DNA of 64,000 bases from positions 4,735-68,734 of the IMG/VR virus record IMGVR_UViG_3300020405_000002; one strand, 5' to 3'. The stretch's first letter is position 1; every line of letters starts with the position of its first letter. This stretch comes from a virus. Shown here piece after piece: positions 53,001-53,241 of the stretch. The notes below the pieces were generated by a model. It had not been told where the DNA came from, searched no databases, and was given only the letters and a program-made list of their open reading frames with translations. The position numbers were made by a program, and so were the translations under genes.

Positions 53001-53241
53001 GTATATAGCTGTAGTGCATAGGAACTCAGGGAGGAGATACGTGCGCAGGCTATTGAAGTGTCAGGAACGACTGTAGATAATCTAAGGGAGGCGATGTAAC
53101 TTCGTTCAGAAGTGAGCCCATAGTGAATTAGGTTGTAGGTCGGAAAGATGATATAAACAGTTATGCATGTGTGTCTTGTTGACATGAGAGACATTACGGA
53201 AGTGTATTGCATATCATTCCTGTTTCATCCACTTCTTTTTT
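53001..53241 (+). ncRNA. Putative multi-stem structured ncRNA between the two tRNA-like RNAs
   Basis: GC-enriched with no plus-strand ORF in the track; closing helix TATAGCTGT/ACAGTTATG, several nested stems, final GGAAGTG/CACTTCT plus T tract. Confidence 0.55.

Follow-up and report, generated by a model that had tools for sequence, protein, structure and literature searches.

The plus strand at 53055-53235 of a 64,000-nucleotide stretch of viral DNA (positions 4,735 to 68,734 of the IMG/VR virus record IMGVR_UViG_3300020405_000002; hereafter the window) encodes, between two elements resembling transfer RNA (tRNA), a member of what comparative analysis indicates is a new, previously uncatalogued, strongly conserved, pseudoknotted and non-coding RNA family. 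The family comprises 58 metagenome loci and 16 viral contigs in addition to the window, with covariation across ~56 distinct sequences and no match to any Rfam 15 model, bearing out the suggestion of a preliminary description, made from the letters of the window, that a new plus-strand non-coding RNA of no known family lies here. That description treated 53001-53241 as a single 240-nucleotide (nt) unit; the conserved RNA does lie within this interval, but it covers 53055-53235, with 53005-53053 forming a separate hairpin. We tentatively favour, at a little under an even chance, the reading that 53055-53235 is a stable RNA cut from tRNA-array transcripts by tRNA-processing enzymes, with its core acting in trans.

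Identification of the RNA family

A tail-fibre protein search returned one related contig only, that of a 68-kb phage (L002; related loci are given L numbers throughout), in which an ordinary tRNA-Met(CAU) occupies the syntenic place, and the 130 nt upstream of this tRNA has short blocks in common with the 3' two-thirds of 53001-53241. Patterns based on these blocks found 4, then 11 viral contigs, and then 68 metagenome loci, with a looser pattern returning 12 further viral loci, six of them divergent family members. Two covariance models were built, R1 from short forms of the RNA and R2 from long forms. Of the 68 metagenome loci, R1 confirmed 58 (E <= 1.5e-6), and of the 11 viral loci from the second pattern scan it confirmed 10, whilst L020, L036, L059, L062, L065, L069, L070, L072, L081 and L084, together with L015, scored at most 19.6 bits with R1, or not at all, and were judged to be chance matches. 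R2 gave 68 matches at E <= 1e-3, with the window member found at 53052-53241 (110.2 bits, E 9.2e-24). Removal of duplicates left 60 distinct full sequences of 106-191 nt.

Beyond these loci, no convincing copy of the motif was found in prokaryote genomes (185,579 species genomes). A scan of genome contigs returned 10 loci, of which the top R1 scores, 27.4 (L088) and 22.8 bits (L090), were judged to be chance because most of each score derives from the enforced pattern and P2 is mispaired. Two related, isolate-type phage records lack the motif: the uncultured spring podovirus MW202828 gave no R1 match, and the motif is absent by R1 from Flavobacterium phage MT497017 (14.9 bits, E 0.17). The complete genomes G000 and G002 hold one motif copy each, and blastn of 52700-53500 against 50,697 phage records gave no match.

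Comparison with Rfam, one of the checks proposed in the preliminary description, likewise places the RNA outside known families. At gathering thresholds, the sole Rfam 15 match in the whole window is a tRNA at 52859-52998, and at E <= 10 across 52700-53500 nothing credible falls in 53001-53241, with TCL6_1 the top match at 17.6 bits against a gathering score of 60. A 121-nt short member searched at E <= 10 gave chance matches only, of at most 12.6 bits, with GOLLD, ROOL, hepatitis delta virus (HDV)-like, hatchet, twister, pistol, RNase P and riboswitch families among the Rfam 15 families left unmatched. ARAGORN and the Rfam tRNA model find nothing in 53001-53241, and there is no cloverleaf. 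No description of the motif was found in the literature; the supplementary tables of PMC10690425, a study reporting 10,006 candidates for structured RNAs drawn from IMG/VR and from RNA viruses, may list the family among unnamed candidates.

Several alignments were used. A1, an all-member MAFFT alignment, misplaces the 5' strands of members with a short arm P3 (Table 1), and was thus not used for pair counts. A2 is the short-form seed alignment, and A4 the long-form seed, made with MAFFT only and fitted to no structure. A5 is the all-member alignment, with 56 distinct rows fitted to nested helices, and is based on R2 because R1 truncates members with a long P3; it leaves out L002, L008, L017, L021, L029, L043 and L077, unlisted by R2 at E <= 1e-3.

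Fold and covariation

In the R2-based alignment helix P1 encloses P2, and P2 runs unbroken into the variable arm P3, with a second variable arm, P5, lying further 3' (Table 1). The partner of a further 5-bp helix is placed between the 3' strands of P2 and P1, creating a pseudoknot. The joining strands hold ~35 invariant nucleotides. One of them, UAUAAACAG, is identical in 60 of 60 sequences, though partly enforced by the search patterns, and is kept in members found by the looser pattern. The purine-rich GAAA strand was absent from the patterns that found the 4 viral contigs and the 68 metagenome loci; its AAA is invariant and its preceding G at least 90% conserved across the 60 sequences, and the strand is kept in divergent members. 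An invariant UU joins the 3' strand of P2 to that of the pseudoknot. The whole RNA ranges from ~105 nt in its shortest form to 191 nt.

Table 1. Coordinates of the RNA and its neighbours in the window
Feature	Position	Strand	Remarks
tRNA-like RNA 1	52859-52998	+	Rfam tRNA, 45 bits; 78-nt insert in anticodon region
Separate hairpin module	53005-53053	+	outside the conserved family; local fold -14.9 kcal/mol, z = -1.74
P1 5' strand GAAGUG	53055-53060	+	pairs with 53230-53235; coordinates read from the sequence
U53061	53061	+	unpaired, between P1 and P2
P2 5' strand CAGGAA	53062-53067	+	family C[U/A]GGAA; pairs with 53217-53222
P3 arm	53068-53142	+	base CGAC/GUCG (53068-71/53139-42); starts directly after P2, no nucleotide between
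P3 symmetric internal loop UGUAG/UGUAG	53072-76/53134-38	+	distal module 53077-53133
Purine-rich joining strand GAAA	53143-53146	+	family R-GAAA; between P3 and pseudoknot
Pseudoknot 5' strand GAUGA	53147-53151	+	pairs with UCAUC 53225-53229
Invariant joining strand UAUAAACAG	53152-53160	+	inside the pseudoknot
P5 arm	53161-53214	+	window variant common to L017 and L025; followed by CA 53215-16
Continuous 3' strand	53217-53235	+	P2 3' UUCCUG 53217-22; UU 53223-24; pseudoknot 3' UCAUC 53225-29; P1 3' CACUUC 53230-35
U-rich 7-nt spacer	53236-53242	+	before tRNA-like RNA 2; no terminator predicted
tRNA-like RNA 2	53243-53380	+	acceptor and T arm; at the position of tRNA-Met(CAU) in other phages

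Covariation strongly supports this fold. In A5, 95.5% of cells form standard pairs compared with 84.3% in column shuffles, and two-sided changes are seen in 16 of 22 pairs (mean in shuffles 10.1), values that none of 500 shuffles reaches; sliding the partners by 1-3 columns lowers pairing to 38-58%. Since A5 is fitted to nested helices, the checks that are independent of this fitting matter most, namely the unmodelled pseudoknot and the plain MAFFT alignment A4, in which 92.5% of cells are paired compared with 83.4% in shuffles. The pseudoknot helix is part of neither R1 nor R2 and hence provides an independent check: in A5 it is paired in 100% of cells, with all five pairs changing on both sides, and it occurs in six complementary versions (GAUGA/UCAUC, GGUGA/UCACC, GAGAG/CUCUC, GACAA/UUGUC, GAUAG/CUAUC and GGAGC/GCUCC). 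P1 is freely variable, with versions including GGGAA/UUCCC, GGAAGUG/CACUUCC, GGAGG/CCUCC and ACAUAAUC/GGUUAUGU; its six variable pairs all change on both sides in A5, and its inner G-C pair is invariant (55/55). The second pair of P2 is A-U in 30 rows of A5, U-A in 24 and unpaired in one, with the other five pairs invariant, and all four pairs of the P3 base covary in both A5 and A4.

The folding energy of 52999-53245 is no better than that of shuffled sequences (z = +0.14 on the plus strand and -0.36 on the minus strand), and the same holds for the whole 531-nt block (z = +0.85), so that support for structure comes solely from comparison with relatives. The structured plus-strand RNA of the preliminary description is therefore upheld by its relatives and not by energy, and its individual helices fared unevenly. 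The local helices GTGCAT/GTGCGC and GTGTCT/AGACAT are present in minimum-energy folds. The proposed helix TGAAGT/ACTTCG takes the 5' strand of P1, for which pairing with 53230-35 is demonstrated, and can form in only one of the eight A4 sequences with that P3 module, the window's own. GGAAGTG/CACTTCT can form in one of three sequences with the window's P5 arm, the 3' strand differing in L017 and L025, and TATAGCTGT/ACAGTTATG takes the ACAG of the joining strand and competes with the local hairpin at 53005-53053; this ACAG was fixed in the search patterns and is unchanged in members from the looser pattern. The hairpin and T tract seen at the 3' end do not correspond to a predicted intrinsic terminator, with no GC-rich hairpin directly before a T run found on the plus strand across 52300-53900. 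A homologue search, also proposed in that description, yielded relatives, and their alignment shows strong covariation.

No sense frame is open in any of the 60 members, whose lengths modulo 3 fall 13/23/24, with arm lengths varying out of frame.

Genomic context

The description of the interval as sandwiched between two tRNA-like elements holds, with the Rfam tRNA on one side and an element with an acceptor and T arm, beginning at 53243, on the other. RNA 1 is not called by ARAGORN by default; with introns allowed, it is called as tRNA-Leu(taa) with a 65-nt intron. Its anticodon arm is lengthened by ~67-78 nt, which fold as an extended helix and not as a classical intron. In RNA 2 the D-like stem is 3 bp long, and there are extra hairpins as well as a loop of 8 nt, UUUCAUAU, that includes CAU. 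A relative of RNA 2 in L040 (1237-1098, minus strand) is 91% identical, with a D-like stem in which A-U replaces G-C, a compensatory change; the order of motif and RNA 2 in L040 is that of the window, with ~80 nt of other RNA between them. No relative of RNA 1 was found beside other family members among the fetched loci. The hairpin at 53005-53053 has its apical part repeated in L110 (~3715-3750), just upstream of the motif, with no other relative among the fetched loci. In the window, 6 nt separate RNA 1 from this hairpin, 1 nt separates the hairpin from P1, and 7 nt separate P1 from RNA 2.

Across 61 distinct contexts, scored with ARAGORN tRNA calls, a tRNA starts within 20 nt downstream of the motif in 37, mostly tRNA-Met(CAU) with some Gly-UCC and Asp-GUC, and in these 37 the distance from the P1 3' end to the tRNA ranges over 3-13 nt (mode 6). 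A tRNA ends within 15 nt upstream of the motif in six contexts, and a tRNA call or T-arm signature is present on at least one side in 49 of the 61. The motif is co-oriented with its neighbouring tRNAs throughout, all lying on the same strand. In L012 the order is tRNA-Met, 3 nt, motif, 4 nt, tRNA-Gly. Tandem motif copies occur in L011 and L049, and L047 has two diverged copies with a tRNA-like RNA between them.

Other RNA elements share these regions. In L021, L025, L031, L049 and L051 a conserved element of ~100 nt, beginning GGCUAGUAACAAUUUACAGCU, stands between the motif and tRNA-Met; L063 and L068 have a different RNA between the motif and the next tRNA, and in L110 and L111 a hairpin-rich RNA follows the motif. 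In L014 (5624-5690), and also in L024, a complete copy is directly preceded by a partial duplicate of the motif (P1 5', P2 5' and a P3-like arm), which looks like a recombination remnant.

A conserved promoter-like word, ATTGCTATACACA..., stands a few nt before the motif in L002, L033, L034, L041 and L085. In the window, six copies of its core, TTGCTATACA, lie on the minus strand within 49867-50881, the divergent region that separates the leftward from the rightward gene blocks, with further plus-strand copies at 52298, 54827 and 60584. Overall match counts of TTGCTATACA in the window are not above chance, and its clustering alone is suggestive; the word is probably a phage promoter element. 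A 250-residue protein encoded at 59691-60443 (plus strand) weakly matches Sigma70 region 2 (E 3e-5) and region 4 (E 5e-4) and is likely to be a phage-encoded sigma factor.

Four metatranscriptome runs from four studies contain contigs of ~150-190 nt that match 53133-53229 at 95-100% and have other arms and flanks; since these differ from those of the window, the contigs are from relatives. The contig shares are 0.05-0.07, and a relative of RNA 2 is present in one of the runs; stretches of the window that no contig covers carry no weight either way.

Variable arms and shared modules

P3 occurs either as a short GCC-GAAA-GGU hairpin, or as a long arm with a conserved UGUAG/UGUAG loop and a variable distal part, whilst P5 falls into at least four unrelated types with 32 distinct sequences. 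The two arms are correlated, with a long P3 accompanied by P5 type A in 25 contexts and by other P5 types in 13, and a short P3 by type A in 2 and by other types in 21.

Modules of these arms recur elsewhere. The window-type distal P3 module is repeated as a stand-alone hairpin in L044 (643-720), and the P3 arm of L044 and L048 also occupies the anticodon-arm position of a tRNA-like RNA in L054 (10879-10910). Similarly, the P5 arm of one L011 copy is found at the anticodon-arm position of a tRNA-like RNA in L111 (6376-6409), and a P5 type C module at that of a tRNA-like RNA in L053 (1772-1798). This suggests that hairpin modules have been exchanged between RNA genes of related phages, and a looser functional link between the pseudoknot RNA and tRNA-like scaffolds, by way of their common hairpin modules, is possible.

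A repeated tRNA-like RNA is present in L054 (10870-10935, minus strand), L111 (6340-6430, minus strand), L053 (1727-1850, plus strand), L010 (~1045-1130, minus strand) and L110 (4030-4135, plus strand), with a G-U third pair in the acceptor stem, a normal T arm and variable hairpin modules replacing the anticodon arm; ARAGORN does not call most of its copies. RNA 1 and RNA 2 of the window look like such tRNA-like bodies with a module-replaced anticodon arm.

Perfect 8-nt palindromes (GUCGCGAC, GAAGCUUC and ACUCGAGU) lie in the would-be apical loops of three P5 types (e.g. L016, L039 and L047). Dimerisation through kissing loops was considered and set aside, as the palindromes occur in these three types only and arise in shuffles at frequencies of 0.035-0.21, too weak a signal.

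Proposed function and alternatives

Under the reading that we tentatively favour, the RNA would belong to the tRNA-array transcript, from which the maturation enzymes of the adjacent tRNAs would free it as a stable RNA of ~105-190 nt. Cleavage by RNase P at the 5' end of the downstream tRNA would create the 3' boundary of the RNA, with its 5' end set either by a 3'-end tRNA nuclease or by the start of transcription. Excision by tRNA-processing enzymes is plausible given that the motif lies 3-13 nt from canonical tRNAs in other phages. More speculatively, the invariant core would act in trans as a compact folded body carrying two exchangeable arms, with P3 and P5 probably serving as binding or docking modules, the same modules being present on tRNA-like scaffolds in related phages.

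Several observations weigh against this proposal. L035, L058 and the L116/L108/L106 group carry the motif with no adjoining tRNA, in L035 and the L116/L108/L106 group between open reading frames (ORFs), and tRNA-coupled processing therefore cannot be universal. So large a number of unpaired positions that never vary is more usual in a core that catalyses a reaction or binds a ligand than in an inert scaffold, and no partner protein or target was found. Additionally, the correlation between P3 and P5 could reflect docking of the arms on each other to stabilise the core, and not binding to an outside partner. The matches in RNA libraries are contigs that could derive from DNA, and they give presence only, not transcription, ends, strand or abundance.

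A new ribozyme class maturing the tRNA array, either self-cleaving or a minimal RNase P-like RNA acting in cis on the adjoining tRNA or in trans on the odd tRNA-like RNAs, is considered unlikely. A small invariant pseudoknotted core with variable peripheral arms has the usual look of small ribozymes, the linkage to tRNAs is tight and its spacing fairly constant (3-13 nt, mode 6), and the correlation of P3 with P5 types is what docking peripheral elements would give. The strands of the catalytic core of RNase P are ordered P1-P2-P3-J3/4-P4, and the order in the motif (P1 5', P2 5', P3, purine strand, pseudoknot 5', insert, P2 3', pseudoknot 3', P1 3') equals it. However, the 121-nt query matches no Rfam ribozyme or RNase P model even at E <= 10, the RNA does not have the nested HDV-like topology, with an invariant UU and no C between the 3' strands of P2 and the pseudoknot, and no cleavage site can be proposed from the sequence. 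Members with no adjoining tRNA are also difficult to reconcile with such a role, and the RNA-library contigs run continuously from motif to tRNA, a weak point as contigs cannot show ends. That the core would be a new catalytic RNA, of a self-cleaving class or a drastically reduced RNase P-like ribozyme, which matures phage tRNAs and tRNA-like RNAs independently of the host, seems quite improbable.

Also doubtful is a cis-acting 5' leader, in the form of a riboswitch, a put-like antitermination RNA or a stabiliser of the 5' end of the tRNA and early-gene transcript. The promoter-like word ATTGCTATACACA... just before the motif would place P1 near the transcription start in the five loci named above, the core of the word clusters in the divergent region of the window, whose phage encodes a sigma-70-family protein, and a U-rich tract follows P1 in some members. 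A leader is nevertheless difficult to reconcile with a motif that lies downstream of or between tRNAs in L012, L031, L051 and L075, is in tandem in L011 and L049, and is followed by varying content (tRNA-Met, Gly or Asp, ORFs or other RNAs). There is no predicted expression platform or terminator, and the window motif lies ~750 nt from the nearest promoter-like word, at 52298.

The preliminary description further took the three RNAs to form one ~520-nt system, with the 240-nt RNA folded through the helices listed there and flanked by two tRNA mimics. The elements do abut, with gaps of 6, 1 and 7 nt, and L040 keeps the order of motif and RNA 2. However, 53001-53054 is absent from all relatives but one, leaving 53055-53235 as the conserved unit, three of the long-range helices are unconserved, RNA 1 has no relative next to other members, and other RNA (~80 nt) separates the motif from RNA 2 in L040. 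The family is found mostly beside ordinary tRNA-Met, Gly or Asp genes, and sometimes between ORFs, so the three RNAs are unsupported as an obligate unit and this reading is very unlikely.

A tRNA mimic, in which P1 and the pseudoknot would stack as a 12-bp acceptor/T helix, was rejected as P1 varies in length from 6 to at least 9 bp (L047, L053).

Lastly, conservation owed to the 91-residue antisense ORF (52937-53212, minus strand), the alternative raised in the preliminary description, has a negligible likelihood: the ORF does exist, and 20 of the 60 members have an antisense frame without stops across the motif, but the other 40 have stops in all antisense frames, lengths change out of frame, helix substitutions are compensatory (A5, A4), the product has no Pfam match (best E 0.16), and the ORF would cross a tRNA body.

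A large invariant core with a covariation-proven pseudoknot is usually the mark of ribozymes, riboswitches or parts of RNA-protein machines, and new classes are rare. The general kind, a structured stable RNA within phage tRNA clusters, is known, and the fold is well supported. The family is abundant in marine viral metagenomes, with ~60 distinct sequences coming from a handful of pattern scans, and its place is telling, in phage tRNA arrays and beside unusual tRNA-like RNAs with the same interchangeable hairpin modules. Were the RNA to be a processed, trans-acting one, it would point to a modular RNA toolkit in flavobacterial phages; were it catalytic, it would represent a new ribozyme class tied to tRNA maturation. 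As alignment, pseudoknot and boundaries are defined, the family is directly testable now, with the shortest form, at ~105 nt, suited to biochemistry and structure work.

Source phage

The window takes up the greater part of an IMG/VR virus record of 68,734 bp, whose completeness is rated at 100%, and has a G+C content of ~30%. Its minus strand carries long structural genes, and from ~50 kb small genes are numerous on its plus strand. PHROGs matches include tail fibres, a GroEL-like chaperonin (44903-46462, minus strand, E 1.6e-142), a large terminase and a primase/helicase. The window also encodes, at 87-1292 (plus strand), the C-terminal barrel of a ribonucleotide reductase large subunit. The nearest terminases are those of Flavobacterium (Elemovirus), Cellulophaga, Tenacibaculum and Maribacter phages, which makes a marine host from the Flavobacteriaceae probable. 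The carriers of the RNA family are uncultivated marine podovirus-like phages with a flavobacterial-type terminase. An A-rich stop/start junction word (AAAUAAAUAAUAUGAAAAAAG-like) is repeated at the starts of small genes, at 52716-52740 of the window and at many loci, and fits a Bacteroidota-style translation initiation that would not use a Shine-Dalgarno sequence.

Comparison with known RNAs

The likeness to RNase P RNA is one of topology only, by inspection of the R2-based alignment, and the present RNA is not a member of that family. The two share the order P1-P2-P3-P4, with P4 as a long-range pseudoknot, coaxial-looking P2 and P3 with no nucleotides between them, a purine-rich strand leading into the pseudoknot, and association with tRNA. 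In contrast to RNase P RNA, the present RNA matches no Rfam model of it and has no specificity domain or P15-type loop, its pseudoknot is 5 bp long with no bulged U, and only two variable hairpins lie outside the core; beyond the strand order, RNase P features are missing throughout. To our knowledge, 105 nt is far below the size of any natural RNase P RNA.

HDV-like ribozymes begin with the 5' strand of P1 at their very terminus and are not enclosed by an outer stem; their catalytic C lies between P4 and P2. Like theta (HDV-like) ribozymes, the present RNA is small, pseudoknotted and directly beside phage tRNA genes, and a role at tRNA ends is conceivable; unlike them, it fails the defining topology, with an outer covarying P1 enclosing all other elements and UU as the corresponding strand.

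GOLLD and ROOL RNAs are often near tRNAs in phage DNA, and the present RNA is likewise a structured phage RNA near tRNAs. In contrast to its 105-190 nt and different architecture, GOLLD and ROOL span ~400-800 nt and have Rfam models of their own, which find no match here. Both are large, elaborately structured non-coding RNAs of phages and prophages (cf. the cryo-EM preprint 10.1101/2024.12.08.627333).

Engineered tRNA scaffolds are tRNA bodies with foreign RNA in the anticodon arm (cf. PMC5397188). The tRNA-like bodies of related phages resemble them in bearing P3 and P5 hairpin modules in the anticodon-arm position; the phage case differs in being natural, and the core of the present RNA is no cloverleaf.

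The species 1 and species 2 RNAs of phage T4 (rnaC and rnaD) are small stable RNAs of its tRNA cluster that share a transcript with the tRNAs and owe their maturation to the tRNA-processing machinery. No kinship of sequence or fold is expected between these and the present family, which has a covarying pseudoknot core and belongs to marine flavobacterial-type phages. Both are, however, encoded within a phage tRNA array and co-oriented with it, and the co-transcription and excision that we tentatively propose for 53055-53235 would follow the same genomic logic.

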